This document shows positions 5,494-16,077 of a stretch of DNA of 16,614 bases, one piece after another. Location: IMG/VR virus record IMGVR_UViG_2778261297_000002; one strand, 5' to 3'. The notes under the pieces are model-generated. The model did no database searches and had not been told where the DNA came from. It saw nothing but the letters and a program-made list of their open reading frames with translations. The stretch is from a virus (taxonomy: Duplodnaviria > Heunggongvirae > Uroviricota > Caudoviricetes). Every line of letters starts with the position of its first letter. Position 1 is the stretch's first letter. The position numbers and the translations under genes are program-made.

Positions 5494-5855
5494 CCGATAT
5501 TTTTGAAGTGATAGGCCCATTGTTCCGCAAACTGACCGAAACCTGTATTGCTCACCAGATAGCGGAAACCGGTTCGGCAACCTTGCTGGTGGAAAGCGAT
5601 AAGTATATGGCCCGCTATCGCTTCACGCTGGAGCCGCGCGTAACTGAAAACGTATTGATGAAATATATGATTTTTGGCTGCTTTGAAGAATTCGGGCGCG
5701 ATGAGGGGTTAAGGCGTTTGCGGGATATTCTGCTGACCTGCTTTACCGACGATGGCGATATTAACGAAATGGGGTTGCAGATAGTGAAAAGCTGCCACCT
5801 TGAATACCTGCATGAAGATTTGGAAGCGGATCTTTCCAATAAGGTGCTGCACTGA
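5490..5855 (+). CDS. Hypothetical protein (121 aa)
   Basis: ATGA overlap at 5490-5493; GGAGG at 5476-5480. Confidence 0.6.
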   Translation: MTDIFEVIGPLFRKLTETCIAHQIAETGSATLLVESDKYMARYRFTLEPRVTENVLMKYMIFGCFEEFGRDEGLRRLRDILLTCFTDDGDINEMGLQIVKSCHLEYLHEDLEADLSNKVLH

Positions 5856-7987
5856 TGAAGATGAAAAACGCCCCAAACATTAAGTGTCTGCCAAAGGACA
5901 AGTTTACTGAGGCGATTATTTTTGCGGGGGAAGATGCTTATTCACACGCGCAGCACTGGATCGAGAGCGAGGGGAAAAGGGCGGGGGATGATGTGCCGCC
6001 TGTGTATCTGGGGAAAAAGCAGCTGGAGGAGCTTGAAAGGCTGAATATCATCGATCAGGGGCGTCGTTGCGTACGCGTGATTAGAGCTGGCGAGCTTTCC
6101 GAAATGCAGATAAGCACTATCGCAACCAAACTGGCGCTGGCGGATGTGAAAGAGGCCCGGCTGTTTAATGGCATGTTTGAGCCTCAGCCGAAGGAGAACT
6201 GGACGGATGTACTTCCACGGCTCAGGGAAGATGCCGAGCGTGGGGAAAGTATTGTGGTAAATCTGCCTGTGAAAAAAAGGGAGCCAAAGCCTGAACCGGG
6301 TGATGAACTGAAACCCCGCGTAGAGAGCCGTAACGATGGCCTGTACTGGATCACGCCAAAGGTGGATAAGGACAGCGGAGAAATAATCAATAACGAAACG
6401 TGGCTGTGTTCGCCGCTTGAGGTGGTGGGGTCCGGTAGTGACGGGGCCGAGCGCTATCTCGTTTTGCGCTGGCGTTCGCCACGTGGCCATGAAGATATTA
6501 CCAGGGCGATCCCCTGTGCTGATATCGGTGAGCGTGACGGCTGGCGCTCTCTAAAGGCTGGTGGGGTAAACGTAACGACTAAAAGTACATTCCGGGCAAT
6601 TCTTGCCGACTGGCTACAGCAATGTGGTGCAGGGCAGGAATGGATTATTAGCCATACCACCGGCTGGCATCACGGCGCATACATCATGCCAGATGGTGAA
6701 GTTATCGGTGATCCGGAAATGCCTATTCTCTTTAACGGTCGCAGCGCTGCATCTTCCGGTTATGCCGTGGCTGGAACTGCTGAGAGTTGGCGGGATTCAG
6801 TGGCATATCTGGCAGGAGGCAACCCATCGATGATGCTGGGTGTGGCTGCGGCATTGTCTGCGCCGCTGATCGGGCTGGTGGGCGCTGATGGCTTCGGCGT
6901 CCATTTGTTCGAACAGTCCAGCGCCGGTAAGACTACCACCGCAAATATTGCGAGCAGTATTTGGGGCGAGCCCGACGCTTTGAGGTTGACCTGGTACGGT
7001 ACCGCGCTTGGTATTGCTAACGAGGCAGAGGCGCATAACGACAGCCTGTTACCACTTGATGAGGTAGGGCAGGGCAGCAGTGCTAAAGATGTCGCCACGT
7101 CTGCTTACACTTTGTTTAACGGGGCTGGGAAGTTGCAGGGGGCTAAAGAGGGTGGCAACCGGGAGCTAAAGCGCTGGCGAACTGTTGCGATCAGTACCGG
7201 GGAAATGGATATTGAAACATTCCTGGCTGCTGGTGGAATTAGGGTGAAAGCTGGGCAGCTGGTGCGCCTGCTGAATATCCCCATGGAGAAATCCACGGCC
7301 TTTAACGGGCTGGCTAACGGAAAGGCCCACGCCGATGCACTGAAAGAGTCATGGATTGATAACCACGGCGCAGCAGGGCGTGAGTGGGTAAAATGGCTGG
7401 CAACCCACCAGCAGGAGGCTAAACAGGCTGTGCGGGATGCGCAGACGCGCTGGCGCAGTCTTATTCCGGCTGATTATGGTGAACAGGTTCATCGTGTGGC
7501 TGAGCGCTTCGCCATTCTTGAGGCTGCGCTGGTAACTGGTTCGCCGATAACTGGCTGGAGTGAACAAGCCAGCCGGGATGCTATTCAGCATAGCTTCAAT
7601 GCCTGGGTAAAAGAATTCGGAACAGGTAACAAGGAGCACCAGCAGATCATCGAGCAGTGCGAGGCCTTTCTGAACGCGCATGGTATGAGCCGCTATGCTC
7701 CGCTGCCATACTGCCCGTCAGATATGCCAATTCGTGATATGGCTGGATACCGCGAAAGGGGCAAGCATGATGATTCGCCGATGGTGTTTTATACCTTCCC
7801 TTCTGCGTTCGAAAAAGAGATAGCGCAGGGGTTCAATGCGAAGCAGTTCGCCAGAGTTCTGTCTGAATCTGGAATGTTGACACCCCCAGCAAGCGGCAGG
7901 GGATACCAGCGGAAATCACCGCGTATCGATGGGCGTCAGATTAATGTTTACGTCATTCAGTACCAGCAGGAGGGAACCGAAGAATAA
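5855..7987 (+). CDS. Phage/satellite primase-helicase-like replication protein (P4 alpha-like, P-loop NTPase)
   Basis: 710 aa; Walker A-like FEQSSAGKTTTANIASSIWG in the central region; TGATG overlap with the upstream gene; followed directly by the iteron array. Confidence 0.8.
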   Translation: MKMKNAPNIKCLPKDKFTEAIIFAGEDAYSHAQHWIESEGKRAGDDVPPVYLGKKQLEELERLNIIDQGRRCVRVIRAGELSEMQISTIATKLALADVKEARLFNGMFEPQPKENWTDVLPRLREDAERGESIVVNLPVKKREPKPEPGDELKPRVESRNDGLYWITPKVDKDSGEIINNETWLCSPLEVVGSGSDGAERYLVLRWRSPRGHEDITRAIPCADIGERDGWRSLKAGGVNVTTKSTFRAILADWLQQCGAGQEWIISHTTGWHHGAYIMPDGEVIGDPEMPILFNGRSAASSGYAVAGTAESWRDSVAYLAGGNPSMMLGVAAALSAPLIGLVGADGFGVHLFEQSSAGKTTTANIASSIWGEPDALRLTWYGTALGIANEAEAHNDSLLPLDEVGQGSSAKDVATSAYTLFNGAGKLQGAKEGGNRELKRWRTVAISTGEMDIETFLAAGGIRVKAGQLVRLLNIPMEKSTAFNGLANGKAHADALKESWIDNHGAAGREWVKWLATHQQEAKQAVRDAQTRWRSLIPADYGEQVHRVAERFAILEAALVTGSPITGWSEQASRDAIQHSFNAWVKEFGTGNKEHQQIIEQCEAFLNAHGMSRYAPLPYCPSDMPIRDMAGYRERGKHDDSPMVFYTFPSAFEKEIAQGFNAKQFARVLSESGMLTPPASGRGYQRKSPRIDGRQINVYVIQYQQEGTEE

Positions 7988-8007
7988 TTACACGTGAGGT
8001 TTATTTT

Positions 8008-8296
8008 GTTGGTTCAGTTGGTTCAGTAGGTAGTGTGTATCGTTATCGTGGTGTTTATATTGATTATTTTACACAGAAACTGAACCAACACTGAACCAAC
8101 AAATGACTGTTTTGAACCAACAAACGGGGGATTTGAACCAACATACCTACCCTGCCCGAATAAGTGTTTTTACTGAACCAACATAAAAACGGCGTTGTTG
8201 GTTCAAAACGGGGCTTTGTTGGTTCACTAAATAAAAATAAGTCTTTTAAAAACAATGTTCTTTACAAATTGAACCAACTGAACCAACTGAACCAAC
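8008..8296. repeat. Replication-origin-like iteron array
   Basis: 12 copies of the 9-mer TGAACCAAC: 8 forward (8081, 8092, 8113, 8134, 8174, 8270, 8279, 8288) and 4 inverted (8008, 8017, 8198, 8218), with an AT-rich stretch at about 8227-8269. Confidence 0.8.
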
Positions 8297-8333
8297 ATAG
8301 TTTTGTTTATATACGCAGAAAATGAGGTGAAAA

Positions 8334-8555
8334 ATGTTGGATGCCGGAATGATTGAGAAGAAATCAGCAGGAAGTGCATCGTTGTGGATGCGTGAGGCTG
8401 TGGAGGAAATAGATAAACAATTTGGCGTTGGCTATGCCAGCAACAACCCTGAGCTGGTGGCAGGGTTCATGCAGGCAGCAGCCATTGATCAGGCGGGGAT
8501 GTATATCCGGTCGCTGGTGGAAACGCTGGATTTATGGCCCGGTTCGCTGGCTTAA
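8334..8555 (+). CDS. Small hypothetical protein (73 aa)
   Basis: GAGG 6 nt upstream of ATG; directly downstream of the iteron array. Confidence 0.5.
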   Translation: MLDAGMIEKKSAGSASLWMREAVEEIDKQFGVGYASNNPELVAGFMQAAAIDQAGMYIRSLVETLDLWPGSLA

Positions 8556-8600
8556 AGCTGAGAGTAAGCCAAAAAACAACATAATTGATGGAGGTAATTT

Positions 8601-8795
8601 ATGGCCTTTAACGATTTTATGGAAGAATCGGAATTGTTTGAGCTACTGGGCAAGAAAAAAACGGCTGTATGGCGGTTACGAAAAGACCATGGTTTTCCGA
8701 ATCCTGTTCTTACCTACCCGTCGCGCTACAGCCGCAAAGCTGTAATGAAATGGCTTGAGGATGGTGGTATTAACCGTACGGTTTGTGGTTATTGA
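8601..8795 (+). CDS. Second AlpA-like HTH regulator (64 aa)
   Basis: FELLGKKKTAVWRLRKDHGFPNPV...SRYSRKAVMKWLEDGG matches the AlpA-type pattern; GGAGG 6 nt upstream; terminator follows. Confidence 0.65.
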   Translation: MAFNDFMEESELFELLGKKKTAVWRLRKDHGFPNPVLTYPSRYSRKAVMKWLEDGGINRTVCGY

Positions 8796-8839: not shown

Positions 8840-9500
8840 CTGTCAGGTAGGGATGGATGTTGATCATTACCTGTAATCATTATTCTCCGGCATACCGTTC
8901 GCCTCTTCGCGTAAAGCTGCCAGTCCGTTAGACTCCTCGCCTTTCTGACCAGTTAGAAAAATCCTAGTGGTTAACATCTGTTGAATAAAACAGCAAAAAG
9001 GAGTTCACACCTTACGCACTATACAGTGCTACGCCCAAAGCCGCGTTAACGCTGGCTTTCTGGGGTATACACCCCTTGTGCATAAATAGTGAAACTTGTA
9101 TACAAAAATGAGGAAAATCAGCCTGCAAGGCGTACCAGATAAGGGATTTCTGTGTATACAGGTCAGCTAGTTAATAGGCCATTATTGAGCTGAGCACGGC
9201 AAGGCTGTATCGCAGGGCAGCTACACGCTGGCAGGAAGTCATGATGATTTGTGCTGAGGACGATGATCGGGAATGGGTAAAGCAGCGCCGTGAAACGTGT
9301 CTGGAGAACGTGAAGCGCCCGCCAGTGAAAACCGATGATTACGGCGATCTGCATAAAGCAGTCACTGAGACACAACACCGCATGGGGATAGCGCAACCAA
9401 ACGGCAATGCCTTCCGATTAAATGGTGGTAAGAAGCAACGACAGGCCACCAGCGGGGGCGACAGTTCGCAGTAAGGTTCGCACTAAAACGGCTGTAAATT

Positions 9501-9558: not shown

Positions 9559-9686
9559 GCTGGAAGCTAAATCGTGATTCAGGACGTCCTAAATATCTGG
9601 TTAGTTCCACTGGTACGCAGTACGCAGTCAGGTGCGCAGCAAAACCGCGCATTCAGTTAGGGTTTTTGCGCACAGTGAGCCGTTAA

Positions 9687-10064
9687 ATGAAAAAAAATAG
9701 CCAACAATCAAGATCCGGATGGGGTGGCAAGCGGAAAGGCGCAGGCGCACCGTTGGGCAATACTAATGCCGTCAAACATGGCGAACGCAGTAGGCGGGCA
9801 TTCTTCCCGTTTGAGGGGGGCGAGGCGCTTTCTCCGCTGGTGCGAAATCGTGCAAGAAACCTCATGATGGCTGAGAGATACGGGCTATTACTGGCGACTA
9901 ATCCGACGCCGGGAACAGAAGAATGGCGCGAGATGACATTGATTAACGGACTCATGGGGCTACATGCCGACAGAATCGCACGGCTTGAGCTGAGTTTAGC
10001 GAGATCCGTTTCAATGCAAGCAAGGCGGGATCTGCGAAGGGTTAAAAAAAGCGGCGCATGTTAG
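9687..10064 (+). CDS. Basic N-terminus protein, possible terminase small subunit-like / packaging protein (125 aa)
   Basis: N-terminal GWGGKRKGAGAPLGNTNAVKHG Gly/Lys-rich motif reminiscent of some phage TerS N-termini; function unverified. Confidence 0.4.
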   Translation: MKKNSQQSRSGWGGKRKGAGAPLGNTNAVKHGERSRRAFFPFEGGEALSPLVRNRARNLMMAERYGLLLATNPTPGTEEWREMTLINGLMGLHADRIARLELSLARSVSMQARRDLRRVKKSGAC

Positions 10065-10093
10065 CAATCCGTATAGTCACCGATGTTGAAATA

Positions 10094-10151
10094 CTGGACT
10101 GTTCAGGACAGAACCAAAGCCCATATGAGGCGAGACCCGCACCAGTAGTGG
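10094..10151. repeat. Conserved bipartite element, copy 2
   Basis: Arms CTGGACTGTTCAGGAC and AGACCCGCACCAGTAGTGG with the same 39-bp register as copy 1. Confidence 0.6.
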
Positions 10152-10450
10152 ACAGAATCACGGGCGTGATTGAGCGTAAGACGGGGAAAGCAGCCAGAGG
10201 CATTGGCCTGACTCTGTAAAAGCAAAACGCCCGCACGGGCGTCAGGGAACGGGATAGACTTCTGCGACAATTTGCATTCGCCGCCAATATAGCAAGCCGT
10301 CCACATCAAGCAATAAACTATCACCGGGAGGGGGAGGCCAAATCTCTGCAACCCTGAGCCTTAAGGACTGCCCGCCTCATCGAATGTTTATACCCGCGAA
10401 AAATAAAATTTAATCTGGGCGTGTTTCATCCTTCCAGATGGGTATGACGT

Positions 10451-10636
10451 ATGACACCACGCGAAATAGCTTTATTGACCACCGCCAAACTGGAGCACGA
10501 AGGCCACCAGCTAACCCCGGCAGATCAACGGGAGATAGAACGCTCAGTTAATGCCGATATAGCCCGGCGTGACAAATTCCGCGAAATGATGCGATCACCT
10601 GCCTACCAGTGGAAGAAGCCAGCGCCGCGCAGGTAG
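10451..10636 (+). CDS. Small protein (61 aa), paralog of 14520-14711
   Basis: C-terminus MMRSPAYQWKKPAPRR parallels MTAPAYQWKRPDNPRR in the second copy, with similarity across the whole length; weak RBS. Confidence 0.45.
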   Translation: MTPREIALLTTAKLEHEGHQLTPADQREIERSVNADIARRDKFREMMRSPAYQWKKPAPRR

Positions 10637-10756
10637 ATATGGGATTATTCCACATGTAACTTATGCGTATTAAGCAAATTTCCTTTATTCACCTTTACAG
10701 AATTGTGAGTACGTCAGTATCGTTATCCTTCCGATTCGCATTTATTCAGGATTTGC

Positions 10757-11299
10757 ATGTACCAGCTAAAGATAACCATCCGAGACAGCAAGCCACCTAT
10801 ATGGCGGCGTGTGCTGGTTCCAGAGCAAATCCCCTTTAGTGAACTTCACGCGGTGATCCAGTTGGCTTTTGGCTGGAATGACGAACACCTGTATATGTTC
10901 GAGAAAGGGCGTAAAGGTGATCCCGGTAGCGAGTATCGCGTATGGGGTGAGGATGAAAGCATGGGTAATGCGGCAATCACACCACTATGGGCAGCGCTCC
11001 AGAATGAGGGTGACAGGCTGGTTTACACGTATGACTTTGGCGACTGGTGGGATTGCCTTATTGTGCTGGAGAAGCAAACACACGATACGAGCAATCAGCC
11101 CATTAGCTGCCTGCGTGGGAAAGGCACCACCCCGGCGGAAAACTCAGGCGGCTTGCATGGTTACAATGAATTGCTATTACAGGCCAGAGAGTCTGATAAT
11201 CCTGAGCAGGCCGAGATCCACAATTTCCTGATGCTGGATATTGAACGCCGGGTTTACGACCTGAGCCGCATCAACGACAGATTGCAGGCTATTAACTGA
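10757..11299 (+). CDS. pRiA4b ORF-3-like family protein (180 aa)
   Basis: YQLKITIRDSKPPIWRRVLVP...ELHAVIQLAFGWNDEHLYMF...YTYDFGDWWDCLIVLE matches the conserved pattern of that family (recognised from memory). Confidence 0.65.
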   Translation: MYQLKITIRDSKPPIWRRVLVPEQIPFSELHAVIQLAFGWNDEHLYMFEKGRKGDPGSEYRVWGEDESMGNAAITPLWAALQNEGDRLVYTYDFGDWWDCLIVLEKQTHDTSNQPISCLRGKGTTPAENSGGLHGYNELLLQARESDNPEQAEIHNFLMLDIERRVYDLSRINDRLQAIN

Positions 11300-11651
11300 C
11301 CCGCATGTATTCACCTGATATTGCGTTATCAGCGCCGCCACTATCTCGCACAACGGCACACTGTCCCGGTAAACCGTAGCGCACGACCGTTGCGCTGGTT
11401 TCACCGCCGCGCCGTACCTGACGGGATTCATACACTGTCATTCGCTCAAGCAGTCCACCGGCAACCATGCTTTCGAGCGTGCGGCTGGTTGATTCGAGCT
11501 GGTATCGTTTATCGAACGATCCCATGCCGTGAAGCAGGTAGGCCACGCCCGACACATCGAGTGGCGGAGCGCCGATCTCACCCGATACCCACTCGAGGTT
11601 ATCCGGCTCAAAGTAACTGAGTATCTCTTTTTTGCGGTTGGTCATTCTCAT
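11292..11651 (-). CDS. Winged-helix-like DNA-binding regulator, copy A (119 aa)
   Basis: ILSYFEPDNLEWVSGEIGAPPLDVSGVAYLL suggests a MarR/PadR-like wHTH; AAGGAA upstream; palindromic operator just upstream; paralog at 14708-15067. Confidence 0.65.
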   Translation of the reverse strand: MRMTNRKKEILSYFEPDNLEWVSGEIGAPPLDVSGVAYLLHGMGSFDKRYQLESTSRTLESMVAGGLLERMTVYESRQVRRGGETSATVVRYGLPGQCAVVRDSGGADNAISGEYMRVS

Positions 11652-11666
11652 GGCTGGCAGGTTCCT

Positions 11667-11696
11667 TATTGTGGGATAGCACTATCATACAATAAG
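11667..11696. promoter_or_regulatory. Imperfect 30-bp palindrome, putative operator of regulator A
   Basis: TTATTGTggGATAGcaCTATCatACAATAA, between regulator A and the divergent 11877 operon. Confidence 0.4.
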
Positions 11697-11876
11697 AAGC
11701 GGTGAGGAATGGCTACTTAACTTTCCCCTCCATTTTGTAACGCAATCAGTACCCCCTCATGTAGTCCGCAACTCTTTTAATTAAAATATTTTATCTTGAC
11801 GATTTATTTTATTGATCATAAGTTAACCCCATACAGAAGAAGTATGTACGTTTAACCAGTATCAGGAGGTCAGGAA

Positions 11877-12053
11877 ATGGCAGTCACTAACAAAAAGCCG
11901 ATTCTTGTTGATCAGCCGATTCTCGAAGGGTTACAGCGCCTCCGGGATGATGAATGCCGACGTTCTACCGTAGGCGCAGCCCCAAGCATTCAGGAGCTGG
12001 CGCGTCACCTTTTGCGCCAGGGTATCCACCGGCATGAGGCGGGCAAGAAGTAA
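11877..12053 (+). CDS. Small protein (58 aa), possible RHH-like regulator; first gene of four-gene operon
   Basis: AGGAGG at 11864-11869. Sequence MAVTNKKPILVDQPILEGLQRLRDDECRRSTVGAAPSIQELARHLLRQGIHRHEAGKK has a strand-helix-helix pattern. TTGACG-type promoter candidate at about 11796-11825. Confidence 0.45.
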   Translation: MAVTNKKPILVDQPILEGLQRLRDDECRRSTVGAAPSIQELARHLLRQGIHRHEAGKK

Positions 12054-12079
12054 CTCTGCTGCCCGGAAAGGAGAAACCA

Positions 12080-12856
12080 ATGCCGTTAATGAAATTACCC
12101 ACATGGGCGCTAACAGCGTTCGGTACGAAAGGTAAGAAAAAACAGCCCCAACTATCTGAGGAAAACCCATCCATGTTTGATTTCTCGCATCTGTCAGGCA
12201 AAACCAAAACGAAAGGCGAGTCCGATAACGGTAATGAGCCACTGAAACAGGATAGTGACGATATTCAGGTATATCGCCCAAACAAGCACAGTCGTGGTCA
12301 CAATGTCGCGGTGTCTACTGAGGCTAAGAACAACCCGGTTCTGGCTGTTCGTTTGCTGAAAGAAACAAAGCTTTCATCGAAGAAAATAAAGCAGCAACTG
12401 GCATCGTCGCCGATGGCGCTTTCTGTGTTTACCCAGAAATTTATGGAAGAGAACGATCCGACCTGGGAGTTTCAGGACGACGAAGAGAAAGCCCGAACGG
12501 CGCTGATGTTTTCAACGCAGAACCGTGACGCAAATGGTTACAGCGCTGCCCAGAGTAGCGCTATCAAGGCATTGAAAAAAATGGAAGAGCCTCTGACAGA
12601 GGATGAGGTCAAGGCATTAGCCAACATGACATTGAAGATGCAAAACGAGTACGACCCGATGTCACCTGACAATGTCAATGCTCGCCGCATAGCGGATGAG
12701 GAGTACCGGGAGGAAGTGGCACAGGCCACAGCACGCCGCAATGATCGTATCCGGGCATCTGGTGTGAGCCTGCCGGGAGATACCCGTCGCGTGAATGGCA
12801 AGATTGAAGGGCCAGCAGGCGAAGCCGAACGCCTTAAATCACAGGTTTCTCTCTGA
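12080..12856 (+). CDS. Hypothetical protein (258 aa), paralog of 12865-13359
   Basis: AAGGAG 7 nt upstream. Shares EAKNNPVLAVRLL and DPTWEF...DANGYSAAQSSAIKALKKMEEPLTEDEV with the downstream gene. Confidence 0.7.
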   Translation: MPLMKLPTWALTAFGTKGKKKQPQLSEENPSMFDFSHLSGKTKTKGESDNGNEPLKQDSDDIQVYRPNKHSRGHNVAVSTEAKNNPVLAVRLLKETKLSSKKIKQQLASSPMALSVFTQKFMEENDPTWEFQDDEEKARTALMFSTQNRDANGYSAAQSSAIKALKKMEEPLTEDEVKALANMTLKMQNEYDPMSPDNVNARRIADEEYREEVAQATARRNDRIRASGVSLPGDTRRVNGKIEGPAGEAERLKSQVSL

Positions 12857-12864
12857 GAGGTGCG

Positions 12865-13359
12865 GTGGTGAGCATTATGAACTTTCAGCATCTCAATCCG
12901 CCGCAGCCCGATGCGCAGGCATATGGCTTTTCCGGGCGCCGTATGCAGCGCATGCATCGACTTCAGCAGTCTGTTGAAGACGAGCAACCCCCTGAACGTC
13001 GCCATTCTGATGCACATCTGATCGCGGTGAGAAAAGAGGCCAAACAAAACCCGATACAGGCACTTCATCTTATCGCTGAAGGGATACCACACCAGCGTGC
13101 CATCGCCTTACTGCAGGGCAGCGTTCGGCAGCTCAGTCGTTTTACCCGTCGGGCCATGGAGAAAGCCTATCCTGGCTGGGAACTCCTTGATGCCGAAGAC
13201 CAGAACATGGCGGCATTCCAGCACAGCATGATTAACGGCGACACCAACGGCTATCGGGCTGGTTTTAACGCTGCTCTGTCGGCGCTGGAGAAGTTTGTAG
13301 AGCCAGTTACGTTTGACGATATCGTGAATAGCGTTAATTCGCTGGTGGAGGAAGTATGA
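12865..13359 (+). CDS. Hypothetical protein (about 160 aa), paralog of 12080-12856
   Basis: EAKQNPIQALHLI and YPGWEL...DTNGYRAGFNAALSALEKFVEPVTFDDI parallel the upstream gene. Start ambiguous (GTG 12865, GTG 12868 or ATG 12877). Confidence 0.65.
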   Translation: MVSIMNFQHLNPPQPDAQAYGFSGRRMQRMHRLQQSVEDEQPPERRHSDAHLIAVRKEAKQNPIQALHLIAEGIPHQRAIALLQGSVRQLSRFTRRAMEKAYPGWELLDAEDQNMAAFQHSMINGDTNGYRAGFNAALSALEKFVEPVTFDDIVNSVNSLVEEV

Positions 13360-13535
13360 GTAATTCATTCGATTTTGAGCTGGTTGCTGATGACAGGGCC
13401 AGTGCTGCCATTGACGACATTAATGAGGCTATTCGCAATCTTGGACCGCATCTGGAGAAGACGCGGGAAAGCCTCAGGCTGGGCGGCCTTCCGCCGTCGC
13501 CTTACAAAAATGGGTCCTTCCTGAGCCTTTTGTAA
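13356..13535 (+). CDS. Small acidic protein (59 aa), last gene of operon
   Basis: ATGA overlap with the upstream stop at 13356-13359; hand translation MSNSFDFELVADDRASAAIDDINEAIRNLGPHLEKTRESLRLGGLPPSPYKNGSFLSLL. Confidence 0.4.
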   Translation: MSNSFDFELVADDRASAAIDDINEAIRNLGPHLEKTRESLRLGGLPPSPYKNGSFLSLL

Positions 13536-13586
13536 GGCACGGGCATTGCGCGCCGCGGTGTTTTCCTAGCTACAGGTTTTGAATTT

Positions 13587-13792
13587 GATTGACACTTTAC
13601 ACTAAGGTTTTTCCGGTTGCTGGGTTGTTAACTCCCTTGAGCGGCAAGGGATTACCGGGAATAACCGCCGATCCTGATTGACAGTTAGATTGACACTTTC
13701 TGCCTGAAAAGTGTCAACCGGACAGAAAAAGTGTCAAGTAGCTGGCGCTTTACAGTTTGATTGACAGTTTCCCGCCGGTGGGTTGACACATT
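13587..13792. repeat. Array of 7 TTGACA(C/G) motifs in both orientations upstream of the 13826 gene
   Basis: Forward copies at 13589, 13678, 13690, 13761, 13783; inverted at 13711 and 13731. Includes the palindrome TTGACACTTT-ctgcctg-AAAGTGTCAA. Confidence 0.6.
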
Positions 13793-13825
13793 GCCTGCCA
13801 ATGATAATTACCCAGGAGAAAAAAT

Positions 13826-14413
13826 ATGTCGCTGATGAGTGTGAGTCAGTACGCTAAACACGCAGGGCTAAGTCGTCAGGCCCTCTACAACTGGGAGGCT
13901 AAGCAAGGTTTCCCCGCACGAGTGGACGGCAAGATTGACCAACTGGCCTGTGATGCCTACCTGGCCCGATACCGCAGCGCCAGTGACCCGCGCACGAAGA
14001 ATGCCAGGGGGAAAACCAAATCTGCTCCAGCCGGTCAGGCGCAGGGGAGTGCGCTGGTGGAAATGAGTGTTGCGGAGATTAAGCGCATCATAGTGTCAGG
14101 TGCCGGTAAGGTGGCCGGGATGGATCCGGACGAACGAGCCCAACTGGCTGCAAAGGCCGTAGAGCTGTTTGTAAGCGAAGGGCCTTATAACCCTCCTGTA
14201 ACGTTCGGCGGCTACCGGCTGTCGATTGTTGAAACGCCAGATGTTGAAATCGGGCAGATCATCGCGGGCGGCGCGTTCGGCCTGTCTGCATATGATGTGA
14301 TTTACGAGTGCCGGGATTACACCCTGACTCTCATGAGCGATGAAACCGAAGAAACAGCCATGCGGAGAGTGATCCCTTCGTTGCTGTATGCCCTGGCCGA
14401 CGATACCGACTAA
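13826..14413 (+). CDS. HTH-containing protein (195 aa), N-terminal MerR/Nu1-like helix-turn-helix
   Basis: N-terminus SVSQYAKHAGLSRQALYNWEAKQGFP looks like a phage HTH; AGGAG 7 nt upstream; strong terminator downstream. Confidence 0.65.
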   Translation: MSLMSVSQYAKHAGLSRQALYNWEAKQGFPARVDGKIDQLACDAYLARYRSASDPRTKNARGKTKSAPAGQAQGSALVEMSVAEIKRIIVSGAGKVAGMDPDERAQLAAKAVELFVSEGPYNPPVTFGGYRLSIVETPDVEIGQIIAGGAFGLSAYDVIYECRDYTLTLMSDETEETAMRRVIPSLLYALADDTD

Positions 14414-14443
14414 AGCAAAGTGTGCCAGCGGGCTCCTGTTATT

Positions 14444-14469
14444 CCAGCCCTCCGGGGCTGGCTTTTTAT
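14444..14469 (+). terminator. Rho-independent terminator
   Basis: CCAGCCC-tccg-GGGCTGG followed by CTTTTTAT. Confidence 0.65.
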
Positions 14470-14519
14470 AACGATGCTCAGGGCGTAGCCGGTGAGCCTA
14501 TAGAGCAGGAAGATATAGC

Positions 14520-14711
14520 GTGTTAAAACAGAAGAAAATCGAGGCGGTAATTGAAGAGCTGGCCCGCCTGCAGGGGAATGAGCTGAATGCCACCGATATG
14601 CTGGAGTTACGTTGCAGGGTTGCGGGAACGCTCGTTGCTAAAGAACGGCACCGCCGGAGGATGACGGCACCAGCCTACCAGTGGAAGAGGCCAGATAATC
14701 CACGTCGTTAA
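14520..14711 (+). CDS. Small protein (63 aa), paralog of 10451-10636
   Basis: GTG start with AGGA 8 nt upstream; shares the C-terminal PAYQWK(K/R)P...PRR motif; stop overlaps the convergent regulator B. Confidence 0.45.
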   Translation: MLKQKKIEAVIEELARLQGNELNATDMLELRCRVAGTLVAKERHRRRMTAPAYQWKRPDNPRR

Positions 14712-15067
14712 ACGACCCGCACATATTCGCCTTCTATCGTGCCGTCTGCACCTCCCGTATCGCGTACCACTGAAACGGTACCCGGCAGGCCGTAACGGAC
14801 AACGGTAGCGGTCGTCTCGCCGCCCATAACGATACTCCGCGCCTCCCTGCTCCGGTACCTCTCCAGCAACCCATCTTTCACCATTGCTTCCAGCGTTCGT
14901 CTGGTGGATTCGAGCCAGTGCCGGTTGTCTTCGAGGCCTGTCCCATACAGCAGGTACGCCACGCCGGATACATCAAGGGGAGGTGCGCCGATCTCACCCG
15001 TCACCCAGTCGCGGTTATCCGGTTCGAAGTAGCTGAGTATCGTCTTTTTGCGGCTGGTTAGTCTCAT
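14708..15067 (-). CDS. Winged-helix-like DNA-binding regulator, copy B (119 aa from ATG 15067)
   Basis: MRLTSRKKTILSYFEPDNRDWVTGEIGAPPLDVSGVAYLL aligns along its length with copy A; AAGGA upstream of ATG 15067 (the six-frame ORF extends to 15103). Confidence 0.65.
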   Translation of the reverse strand: MRLTSRKKTILSYFEPDNRDWVTGEIGAPPLDVSGVAYLLYGTGLEDNRHWLESTRRTLEAMVKDGLLERYRSREARSIVMGGETTATVVRYGLPGTVSVVRDTGGADGTIEGEYVRVV

Positions 15068-15080
15068 AGTGGGAGATTCC

Positions 15081-15106
15081 TTATTGTATGACAGTGCTAT
15101 CATACA
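15081..15106. promoter_or_regulatory. Palindromic putative operator of regulator B
   Basis: TTATTGTATGAcagtgcTATCATACA with arms TGTATGA / TCATACA; same position relative to the start as operator A. Confidence 0.4.
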
Positions 15107-15320
15107 TTAGTAATTCATGACAATCCGCCGTCATGGCTGGTGGTCACAGTCATGATAAATGTGCTCAGCCCATTCCCGGTTGAGTATGGGGGACGCATTC
15201 AACATCGAGGCATTTATAACTAATTGATGGTTATGTTTATGGAATTTGATGTTTTATAGCAGTAGGATGAAATCGCATAGACTATGCACAGCTATTACTC
15301 TGGATATACAAGGAATTTAT

Positions 15321-15860
15321 ATGTCATTAGCTAACAAAATGAAACTACAAGATCTTAAAGCAAAAATTGAAGAATTCAGCGCTCCTCGGCGCGAGTTGTT
15401 GAATAAACAAATAAATGATGCTGCTACTGCTATTCAGAAAGATGTTTTGGAATTTTTTAAATCTAAAGGATTTACAATTACAGGCCAGACTCCTAAGTTG
15501 AAAGCCACTTATAACGGCGGCCTTGATACTCTCATTGATTTCTCAAAACTCACAGGAAGCTTCTTTGGTTGTGATGGTGCAGTTGAGTTCAAATATGAAA
15601 ATAAAGAATTTTCGCTTAATTACTCTATAAAACGTGGAAAGTCCCCGGAGCGTAATTCTTGGGCTGGTAGGCCTGATGAAATGCTACTAAAAGAAATTGA
15701 GTTCTATGAGAAAGAATTATTGCCGTATTTAGAGTCAACTGGTGTTTCAGACCTAAGCGGCGAGGTGGTTTTGTTCTCAATGGTTAAAAACGCAACAGGT
15801 AAACCAACTACGCAGAAGTATGAAAGTGTTGAGCAAGCACTGAACAGCCTCATGGATTAA
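15321..15860 (+). CDS. Hypothetical protein (179 aa), AT-rich cargo gene at the right edge
   Basis: AGGAA 5 nt upstream of ATG 15321 (ORF track extends to 15246); sampled lines about 27-38 percent G+C; terminator follows. Confidence 0.6.
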   Translation: MSLANKMKLQDLKAKIEEFSAPRRELLNKQINDAATAIQKDVLEFFKSKGFTITGQTPKLKATYNGGLDTLIDFSKLTGSFFGCDGAVEFKYENKEFSLNYSIKRGKSPERNSWAGRPDEMLLKEIEFYEKELLPYLESTGVSDLSGEVVLFSMVKNATGKPTTQKYESVEQALNSLMD

Positions 15861-15868
15861 ATGTCTGC

Positions 15869-15905
15869 ACCATGCCTGCAATCGTAAGCAGGCATGGTAT
15901 TCATT
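15869..15905 (+). terminator. Hairpin terminator / possible element boundary
   Basis: ACCATGCCTGC-aatcgtaa-GCAGGCATGGT followed by ATTCATT. Confidence 0.5.
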
Positions 15906-16077
15906 ACCCCTACAATATTTCCTTGCTATAATCCCCAGCTCTTTGGAATGTGCTCATGCTTATGCGTGATTTCGGCTCTGTGCGATAATCCGTATATCAA
16001 TCGGTGTATCAATATTTACTGAATTGCATAGTGTGAGATTGAATTTAACTGATTAAAATCAGTGAGATATATAGATT

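Follow-up and report, generated by a model that had tools for sequence, protein, structure and literature searches.

An array of twelve short repeats (iterons), located at positions 8008-8296 of a 16,614-nucleotide stretch of Caudoviricetes DNA (IMG/VR record IMGVR_UViG_2778261297_000002, hereafter the window), is very probably the replication origin of a satellite island of the Gram-negative phage-inducible chromosomal island (PICI) type, inserted between gcd and hpt, and would be specific for the Rep protein encoded immediately upstream. This reading comes from sequence comparison and relies on the position of the array, the arrangement of the iterons around AT-rich spacers, selection on the sites, their co-variation with the Rep C-terminus, and the homology of Rep to an initiator-helicase. 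The element is a new example of a known PICI-origin design, ordinary in kind rather than a new type of element. What it adds is a set of specificity pairs between iterons and Rep C-termini, a two-unit architecture, and the existence of Rep-less units beside perC.

Organization of the iteron array

The 9-mer TGAACCAAC is present in 12 perfect copies within 8008-8296, and a motif search of the window returned no other perfect copy. Allowing one mismatch adds just two sites, at 1410 and 15800, for a total of 14; among 200 dinucleotide-preserving shuffles, the number of one-mismatch sites averaged 3.25 with a maximum of 9, and none of the 200 attained 14. Four iterons are on the minus strand (8008, 8017, 8197 and 8218) and eight on the plus strand (8081, 8092, 8113, 8134, 8174, 8270, 8279 and 8288), in the order - - + + + + + - - + + +, with start-to-start distances of 9, 64, 11, 21, 21, 40, 23, 21, 52, 9 and 9. 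The array lies outside every annotated coding sequence in the identical E. coli record, its first iteron starting 21 nt past the rep stop codon and its last ending 37 nt before the next open reading frame (ORF 8334). The preliminary description of a twelve-copy array just downstream of this gene is accurate as to number and position, but the copies do not all share one orientation. Indeed, the layout is (-)(-) AT1 (+)x5 followed by (-)(-) AT2 (+)x3, i.e., sets of opposite orientation placed around two AT-rich spacers, in a window with an overall GC content of 0.49. The features are listed below, the left and right units being defined in a later section.

8008..8025, minus strand: outer set of the left unit, 2 tandem iterons (GTTGGTTCA x2) at 9-nt spacing; invariant in three E. 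coli capsid-forming PICIs (L002, L004 and L005), with position and orientation constant across iteron classes
8026..8080, no strand: AT-rich spacer 1 (AT1), GC 0.33, candidate unwinding region of the left unit; 8054-8083 is the 11th least stable 30-mer of the window
8081..8182, plus strand: five direct iterons with spacings of 11, 21, 21 and 40, near whole helical turns; geometry kept across classes
8197..8226, minus strand: inner set of the right unit, 2 inverted iterons (8197 and 8218) at 21-nt spacing; the 8174(+) and 8197(-) sites face each other
8227..8269, no strand: AT-rich spacer 2 (AT2), GC 0.16, containing the conserved CTTTACAAAT; 8227-8256 is the 3rd least stable 30-mer of the window
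8270..8296, plus strand: outer set of the right unit, 3 tandem iterons at 9-nt spacing; the same triple occurs in 61 IMG/VR stretches, 39 times beside a Rep C-terminus and 12 times beside a perC start
8186..8312, minus strand: whole right unit, whose minus-strand reading is collinear by alignment with the single 6-site origin of short-form relatives
8300..8314, plus strand: motif GTTTTGTTTATATAC, independent of iteron class, directly 3' of the last iteron and 20 nt before ORF 8334

Spacer 2, which alignment shows to be kept in single-unit origins and in rep-less units, is the most likely unwinding region. The sequence TTTTGYWTAYMTA (window 8301-8313) follows the last triple in the 12-site origins of seven iteron classes as well as in rep-less units, and a role as promoter element or host-factor site is possible for the surrounding motif GTTTTGTTTATATAC. 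Scans of 7900-8700 for consensus sigma-70 promoters and intrinsic terminators found none in or just after the array; a search within the array found neither GATC nor the consensus for integration host factor (IHF), and no Rfam RNA family overlaps it. A single relaxed match to the DnaA box, at 8067, is unconserved in relatives and was rejected. Between the rep stop and the first iteron, a CAYRTGHG-like motif (ACACGTGAGG in the window, 7991-8000) recurs in nearly all loci L002-L063, whatever their iteron class.

Conservation of the sites and change of iteron class

A scan of one genome per species provided 58 loci with Rep relatives that are 62-91% identical. In the three E. coli capsid-forming PICIs named above, the region is ~75% identical in DNA and the flanking genes are different; all 12 sites are exact and the spacers have diverged. 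Between the window and L002, the iteron positions are identical at 108/108 and the spacer positions at 117/203 (Fisher p = 6e-20), and the 9-mers are under selection. A cluster of repeated 8-9-mers is found in every locus with downstream DNA, starting ~21-31 nt past the rep stop (44 nt in a single case). Of the 60 sequence windows taken downstream of rep, 51 contain an 8-mer that occurs five times or more, versus 6 of 1472 control windows from the same loci.

The orientation pattern and the offsets are constant across loci, while the sequence of the repeat varies and falls into at least nine classes, listed here with the loci that carry them.

TGAACCAAC: most loci
TGAACCACG: L007
TGAACCGA: L045
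TGAGACAAC: L040, L043, L046 and L051
TGGGACAAC: L017
TGGGACAAG: L011
TGGGATAAG: L012, L016 and L056
TAACCCAC: L008 and L039
TAACCCGT: L049, L052 and L053

The 12-site geometry accommodates, in other species, TGAACCACG, TGAACCGA, TGAGACAAC, TGGGACAAC, TGGGATAAG, TAACCCAC or TAACCCGT. Within one array, the sites switch sequence together, as a block, and this is accounted for only by an altered specificity of one binding protein. The coordinate offset between the window and locus L001 is 2181 at int and 2101 at rep and the origin.

The upstream Rep protein

The gene that ends just before the array and its C-terminal segment are described as follows.

5855..7987, plus strand: rep, encoding a 710-aa DUF927 protein, predicted initiator-helicase; aa 1-144, alpha/beta N-terminal domain without family; aa 160-439, DUF927; aa ~620-710, predicted C-terminal DNA-binding domain
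7760..7984, plus strand: Rep C-terminal segment (aa 636-710), the sole part of Rep that tracks iteron class

DUF927 (aa 160-439, E = 6e-49) is the only Pfam match of Rep. Among PDB sequences, Rep matches 8tch_A, the Rep of the Staphylococcus aureus pathogenicity island (SaPI) SaPIbov1, which initiates replication and has helicase activity (E = 7e-15), and 5dgk, the Cch helicase of the staphylococcal cassette chromosome SCCmec. These two structures are also the top and only significant Foldseek matches (probability 1.0) of a full-length AlphaFold2 (AF2) model with a pLDDT of 56, a model used solely to confirm the Cch/SaPI-Rep fold and for its confident alpha/beta N-terminal domain. Both sequence and predicted fold make Rep (~13-20% identical to 8tch) a clear homologue of two proteins, the initiator-helicase of SaPIbov1 and the Cch of SCCmec.

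The N-terminal domain (aa 1-144; 5855-6286) is modelled as alpha/beta with a pLDDT of 74-91; it has no Pfam match and matches PHROG 2850, a family of unknown function. Relatives of ~900 aa (e.g., L002) instead begin with Zn_Ribbon_Prim and Toprim_3 domains in which the catalytic Glu and DxD motifs are conserved, and BLAST detects no similarity between the Rep N-terminus and this primase N-terminus. A degenerate primase, hinted at by weak PHROG matches, was considered and rejected, since hhalign against the Zn-ribbon/TOPRIM N-termini gave a probability of 0.5%. The earlier identification of the upstream gene as a primase is therefore not upheld, as the protein consists of DUF927 and an N-terminal domain without family, and the primase annotation of this 710-aa DUF927 protein, a form of Rep that is common in Enterobacterales, is corrected here.

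Co-variation of the iterons with the Rep C-terminus

Over aa 136-610, relatives with the same iteron and relatives with a different iteron are equally similar to the window Rep. Over aa 636-710, same-iteron relatives retain an identity of 0.67-0.77 to that protein, and different-iteron relatives 0.34-0.57. Consistently, pairwise identity within and between classes is 0.772 and 0.741 for the core (aa 150-610), compared with 0.717 and 0.525 for the C-terminal domain (aa 620-705). The nearest neighbour belongs to the same class for 47/48 sequences when the C-terminal domain is used and for 40/48 when the core is used. None of 2000 label permutations matched the observed contrast between same and different classes, a statistic that is inflated by the phylogenetic non-independence of related sequences.

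Because co-variation is scored on related sequences, natural module swaps, a control independent of phylogeny, are cleaner evidence. Locus L002 has only Rep aa 143-710 and the array in common with the window, and its iterons are identical. Locus L040 has the downstream perC and pRiA4b genes in common with the window and locus L007 the integrase and AlpA, and in both the iteron class is different. Iteron class thus tracks the last ~90 residues of Rep only, with no such link to the N-terminal domain, to the integrase, to AlpA or to the genes downstream. The difference between classes is concentrated in one short motif, SGRGYQRKSPRIDGRQINVYV in the window (Rep aa 680-700, nt 7892-7954), where a change of ~10 residues, such as YQRKSPRI with TGAACCAAC versus YQGRV-RE with TGAGACAAC, accompanies the change of iteron.

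TGAACCAAC class: SGRGYQRKS-PRI-DGRQINVYV
TGAGACAAC class: SGRGYQGRV--RE-DGRQIRVYV
TGAACCACG class: DGQRFQQKS-PRI
TGGGACAAC class: SGRGWQGRT-PRLKHQNNARQRAYI
TAACCCAC class: RGRYKKKAL-RKM-GGKQHVFYV

The Pfam family HTH_56, the helix-turn-helix (HTH) of Cch, covers the ~65 C-terminal residues and matches 13 of 29 relatives (best E = 2.5e-5); the E-value for the window Rep itself is just 0.02-0.03. Both AF2 runs place two helices followed by a beta-hairpin at the C-terminus, at a confidence too low for use. The comparisons argue strongly that the upstream DUF927 initiator-helicase recognizes the 9-mers through its C-terminal, predicted helix-turn-helix domain, and that Rep and the origin form a matched specificity pair.

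Two-unit anatomy and its variants

When read on the minus strand, the right part of the array (8186-8312) aligns site for site with a single 6-site cluster that constitutes the entire array in about half of the relatives. In this cluster, three tandem iterons are followed by ATTTGTAAAG and ~45 nt of AT-rich DNA, then by two to three iterons in the opposite orientation with 11/21-nt spacing. The left part is a more diverged copy of the same core unit in forward orientation. On the basis of these alignments, the probable origin in the window is made of two inverted copies of the 6-site core unit, fused via the central phased iterons.

In the 12-kb circular PICI L075, in L057 and in several IMG/VR contigs, the units are not fused: the first follows rep, and ~1.8-2.3 kb further on the second immediately precedes perC. 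Four IMG/VR cases have the pair on a single contig. Within 4 kb, a second cluster is missing from most single-unit loci. Loci of this latter kind account for about half of the relatives, so that a second element would not be a general requirement, and one unit appears to be enough in many of them.

Several loci depart from these arrangements. In L006, an insertion of ~170 nt separates sites 6 and 7, ~160-320 nt past the rep stop, and leaves the sites themselves intact. The tandem part has grown to 6-7 head-to-tail 9-mers in L058 (29-91 nt past the rep stop) and in the IMG/VR loci L077, L095, L116 and L123, and some of the expanded IMG/VR runs have neither rep nor perC nearby. Yersinia pekkanenii (L014) has extra TGAACCAAC clusters upstream of rep (~0.9-1.2 kb and 5.5-5.7 kb before its stop codon), which point to elements that are nested or in tandem, or else to a disruption of rep.

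Rep-less units beside perC

Right-type units are not confined to loci that encode Rep. Approximately 495 of 5426 complete E. coli genomes (~9%; median of 2 places per genome) carry such a unit with no DUF927 rep nearby, and the full set of rep and origin is found in 7 complete E. coli genomes only. In the rep-less unit, an AT-rich spacer separates three inverted iterons from three tandem copies of TGAACCAAC, and all six 9-mers are exact in the copies that were read (L003 and L070). The positions that correspond to window 8186-8312 are given below.

L003: 7975-8125
L070 and L071: 7001-7117
L072 and L073: 6001-6117

These units are located 20-45 nt upstream of a perC-family gene, within a conserved module that reads HTH(-) ... 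unit-perC-hyp-pRiA4b_ORF3 (hyp, hypothetical gene) and that often terminates a P22-like prophage beside dinD or lies close to ykgL. Because of the rep-less copies and of the class-independent motif that follows the last triple, the right half of the array may have a transcriptional role, instead of or besides that of an origin. One proposal, which we regard as improbable, is that the 6-site core unit is a portable Rep-responsive cis element and not merely a half-origin. The Rep of an induced or incoming PICI, or capsid-forming PICI (cf-PICI), of the TGAACCAAC class would then act in trans on the rep-less unit, where its effect would be either local replication, with amplification of the perC region, or a switch of the perC promoter. 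If true, satellite induction would be linked to a family of virulence regulators.

Comparison with known replicons

Gram-negative PICIs have their origin 3' of rep, in the form of an AT-rich region flanked by two iteron sets (Fillol-Salom et al. 2018, PMC6092414), and the rep-ori of EcCICFT073, which has the same design and belongs to another Rep family, was shown to replicate (PMC6092414). The corresponding gene layout is seen in EcCICFT073, EcCIIHE3034, EcCI042, EcCI11128, EcCIRM13514 and EcCI224, whose origins follow this design with other iterons. The island in the window resembles them in having int, alpA, an icd-like gene, small ORFs, rep, ori and perC in one direction, with ori directly 3' of rep, and in having an AT-rich region bracketed by two sets of short iterons that occur in both orientations. 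However, the six published E. coli PICIs that were checked use P4-alpha-like initiators of the "DNA primase family" or RepA-helicase initiators, with iterons GGTAGAYA x10-11 or AAGTGAG x6, whereas the window has a DUF927 initiator, the iteron TGAACCAAC and a double, near-palindromic 12-site origin. DUF927 proteins have been pooled into a generic "Primase" family of Gram-negative PICIs (PMC10111431). Neither the TGAACCAAC iteron nor the gcd/hpt site appears in the supplements of Fillol-Salom 2018, and a full-text literature search for the 9-mer found unrelated primer sequences only and no paper describing the iteron.

In SaPIs, the C-terminal domain of hexameric Rep binds iterons in an ATP-independent manner, and Rep melts the AT-rich spacer and loads itself (Qiao 2022, PMC9371898; this paper, which summarises Ubeda 2007 and 2012, is the source of the SaPI origin facts used here). 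The origins of SaPIbov1, SaPI1 and SaPI5 (PMC9371898) resemble the array in their homologous initiator-helicase, in 6-12 iterons just downstream of rep with an AT-rich centre, in at least two iterons in opposite directions on each side, in the reading of the iterons by a C-terminal HTH (predicted for the window Rep), and in matched Rep-ori pairs. They differ in that the host of the window element is Gram-negative, its iteron is 9 nt long versus 5-6 nt, two AT-rich spacers are present, the N-terminal domain of Rep is neither a primase nor absent, and identity to 8tch is low, as given above.

Phage P4, with its ori and crr sites and its alpha protein, is likewise a satellite replicon with its own multidomain initiator, short iterons bound through a C-terminal DNA-binding domain of the initiator (predicted for the window Rep) and two clusters, and the Zn ribbon and Toprim of alpha have counterparts in the ~900-aa relatives. 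In contrast, the P4 octamer TGTTCACC is absent from the array, a single chance copy lying inside rep at 7478; the window Rep has a DUF927 helicase rather than an SF3 (superfamily 3) helicase and no primase domain; and the two clusters are adjacent, the second being apparently dispensable in many relatives. No sid, psu or delta gene was seen among the ORFs scanned. Iteron plasmids (pSC101, R6K, RK2 and P1) share the juxtaposition of an initiator gene with repeated sites and an AT-rich unwinding region. They carry 17-22-bp direct repeats in one orientation, conserved DnaA boxes and WH1-WH2 proteins of the Rep_3 type that recruit DnaB, whereas in the window the 9-mers occur in both orientations, the initiator is itself the helicase, the DnaA-like box at 8067 is unconserved, and Pfam finds no Rep_3 match in Rep.

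Several proposals of the preliminary description can be placed against this background. An iteron origin bound by the initiator encoded immediately upstream is strongly supported, at the level of comparison, by the conserved geometry, the block-wise change of iterons, the co-variation with the Rep C-terminus and the homology to SaPIbov1 Rep. Likewise, the suggestion that the 9-mer, being different from the P4 repeat, defines a replicon specificity of its own is supported by the nine or more natural classes and their co-variation with the C-terminal domain; the comparison of iterons across related islands, advised there as a check, returned a fixed geometry and a sequence class that follows the Rep C-terminus. 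The analogy with P4 ori and crr survives in part, through the two origin-like units that lie ~1.8-2.3 kb apart in some relatives; for the octamer and the alpha-type helicase it fails, and PICIs and SaPIs are the proper reference.

Alternative functions of the array

The array, or at least its right unit (8197-8314), could mainly be a transcriptional operator or promoter through which Rep or another regulator controls ORF 8334, HTH 8601 and perC 9241, origin function then residing in the left unit only or elsewhere. We consider this main alternative rather unlikely. In its favour are the right units found alone upstream of perC with their six 9-mers intact, the distance of ~2 kb that separates the units next to rep and next to perC in L075, in L057 and in several IMG/VR contigs, and the presence after the last triple of the class-independent TTTTGYWTAYMTA, which is TATAAT-like in L003. 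The scan for a consensus sigma-70 promoter was negative, however, and iteron class follows Rep rather than the downstream genes. Moreover, the right unit is collinear, AT-rich spacer included, with the sole iteron cluster found directly after rep in single-unit relatives, and it therefore has the anatomy of an origin. The two roles are compatible, and it is possible that a regulatory role of the right unit is additional to origin function, not an alternative to it.

An origin of the P4 type, in which one unit is the true ori and the other a crr-like cis enhancer that needs initiator binding and looping, would account for two clusters of the same sequence in inverted orientation, fused here and 1.8-2.3 kb apart in L075 and L057. 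The P4-alpha-type Zn ribbon and Toprim of the ~900-aa relatives also point this way, as does the winged-helix domain in which P4 alpha also ends (PMC2777425). This arrangement is nevertheless improbable given the single-unit loci with no second cluster within 4 kb, the lack of the P4 iteron in the array and a helicase that is DUF927/MCM-like instead of SF3. Far less probable still is a partition (centromere-like) or packaging (pac) site whose repeats would be bound by a ParR-like or TerS-like protein. Two sets of clustered short repeats do resemble parC of plasmid R1, and a TerS-like ORF is present at 13826-14413, but par genes were not found in the window, the array moves with Rep aa 143-710 into islands whose downstream and packaging genes are unrelated, and the iteron class co-varies with the Rep C-terminus.

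A Rep-specific origin is the reading we favour, and a number of observations weigh against it. The right unit exists without rep upstream of perC, where it is followed by TTTTGYWTAYMTA regardless of class, and the permutation result is subject to the inflation mentioned above. An AF2 model restricted to the Rep C-terminal domain reached a pLDDT of 45, too low for use, and a profile of Rep C-terminal domains gave no meaningful match against PDB sequences. No primase domain was detected in Rep or in any window ORF scanned, which leaves priming unexplained, and a literature search found no replication, binding or melting experiments on DUF927-type Gram-negative PICIs.

Proposed mechanism of initiation

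By homology with SaPI Rep, the island would first be induced and excised. Rep hexamers would then dock via their C-terminal domains on the opposite iteron sets that flank an AT-rich spacer, open this spacer unaided by a separate loader and, as the replicative helicase, thread themselves onto the DNA, probably with one hexamer loaded on each side. Because Rep does not have the Zn-ribbon/TOPRIM primase domain of its ~900-aa relatives, priming would have to come from the host. As for the second unit, it may serve to load another hexamer, play the part of crr in P4, or link expression of the downstream genes, perC among them, to Rep binding.

Such a scheme would supply a replication module for a widespread and uncharacterised class of Gram-negative satellites. 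PICIs and cf-PICIs with a DUF927 Rep are found in Escherichia, Klebsiella, Salmonella, Enterobacter, Pantoea, Serratia, Yersinia and other genera. With nine or more natural iteron classes on a fixed 12-site scaffold, they offer a ready system for studying how self-loading helicases read DNA, and the specificity series could be useful for predicting incompatibility or cross-replication between co-resident satellites.

The island and its relatives

The island is ~16 kb long, lies between gcd and hpt in E. coli and has nearly all its genes in one direction; positions 7900-8400 of the window are 100% identical to E. coli strains 1368KP and EC09. Its organization is that of Gram-negative PICIs, with int, alpA, rep and ori in one direction, a specific chromosomal site and a perC-type accessory gene. 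The features outside rep and the array are the following.

1-1227: integrase
1236-1303: int-alpA RNA (RF02996, 60.8 bits in Rfam), between the integrase stop and the next ORF
2252-2569: AlpA
Between AlpA and rep: AntA antirepressor, Icd-like gene and three small ORFs
Downstream of the array: two small ORFs, then perC at 9241-9474
13826-14413: weakly TerS-like ORF of 195 aa, whose first 73 residues match a PHROG terminase small subunit (E = 1.9e-9), with a weaker match to an excisionase/regulator HTH

Two closed circular records carry the rep-ori module, NZ_CP069874.1 (L074; 15,995 bp, Klebsiella) and NZ_CP148430.1 (L075; 12,152 bp, E. coli). The former encodes a Rep that is 91% identical, has 11 of the 12 sites in the same layout and, with int, alpA, DUF927 rep, capsid, portal, protease and TerS/TerL genes, is a cf-PICI; the latter has int, antA, TOPRIM-DUF927 rep and perC and is a PICI. 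Both were deposited as circular non-mobilizable plasmids and are presumably excised episomal forms. The existence of these circular 12-kb and 16-kb records is circumstantial support for replication from the rep-ori module.

The product of 13826-14413 may be a packaging specificity factor of the satellite, and its weak TerS likeness is the sole hint of induction, packaging or transfer with the help of a phage. The cargo region (9600-16000) is mostly composed of ORFs without family, with matches to pRiA4b ORF-3 and PHROG 14564. PADLOC returned two weak sub-threshold matches only among the cargo genes, DrmD and mad1, and the ORFs of this region may be defence or accessory genes.

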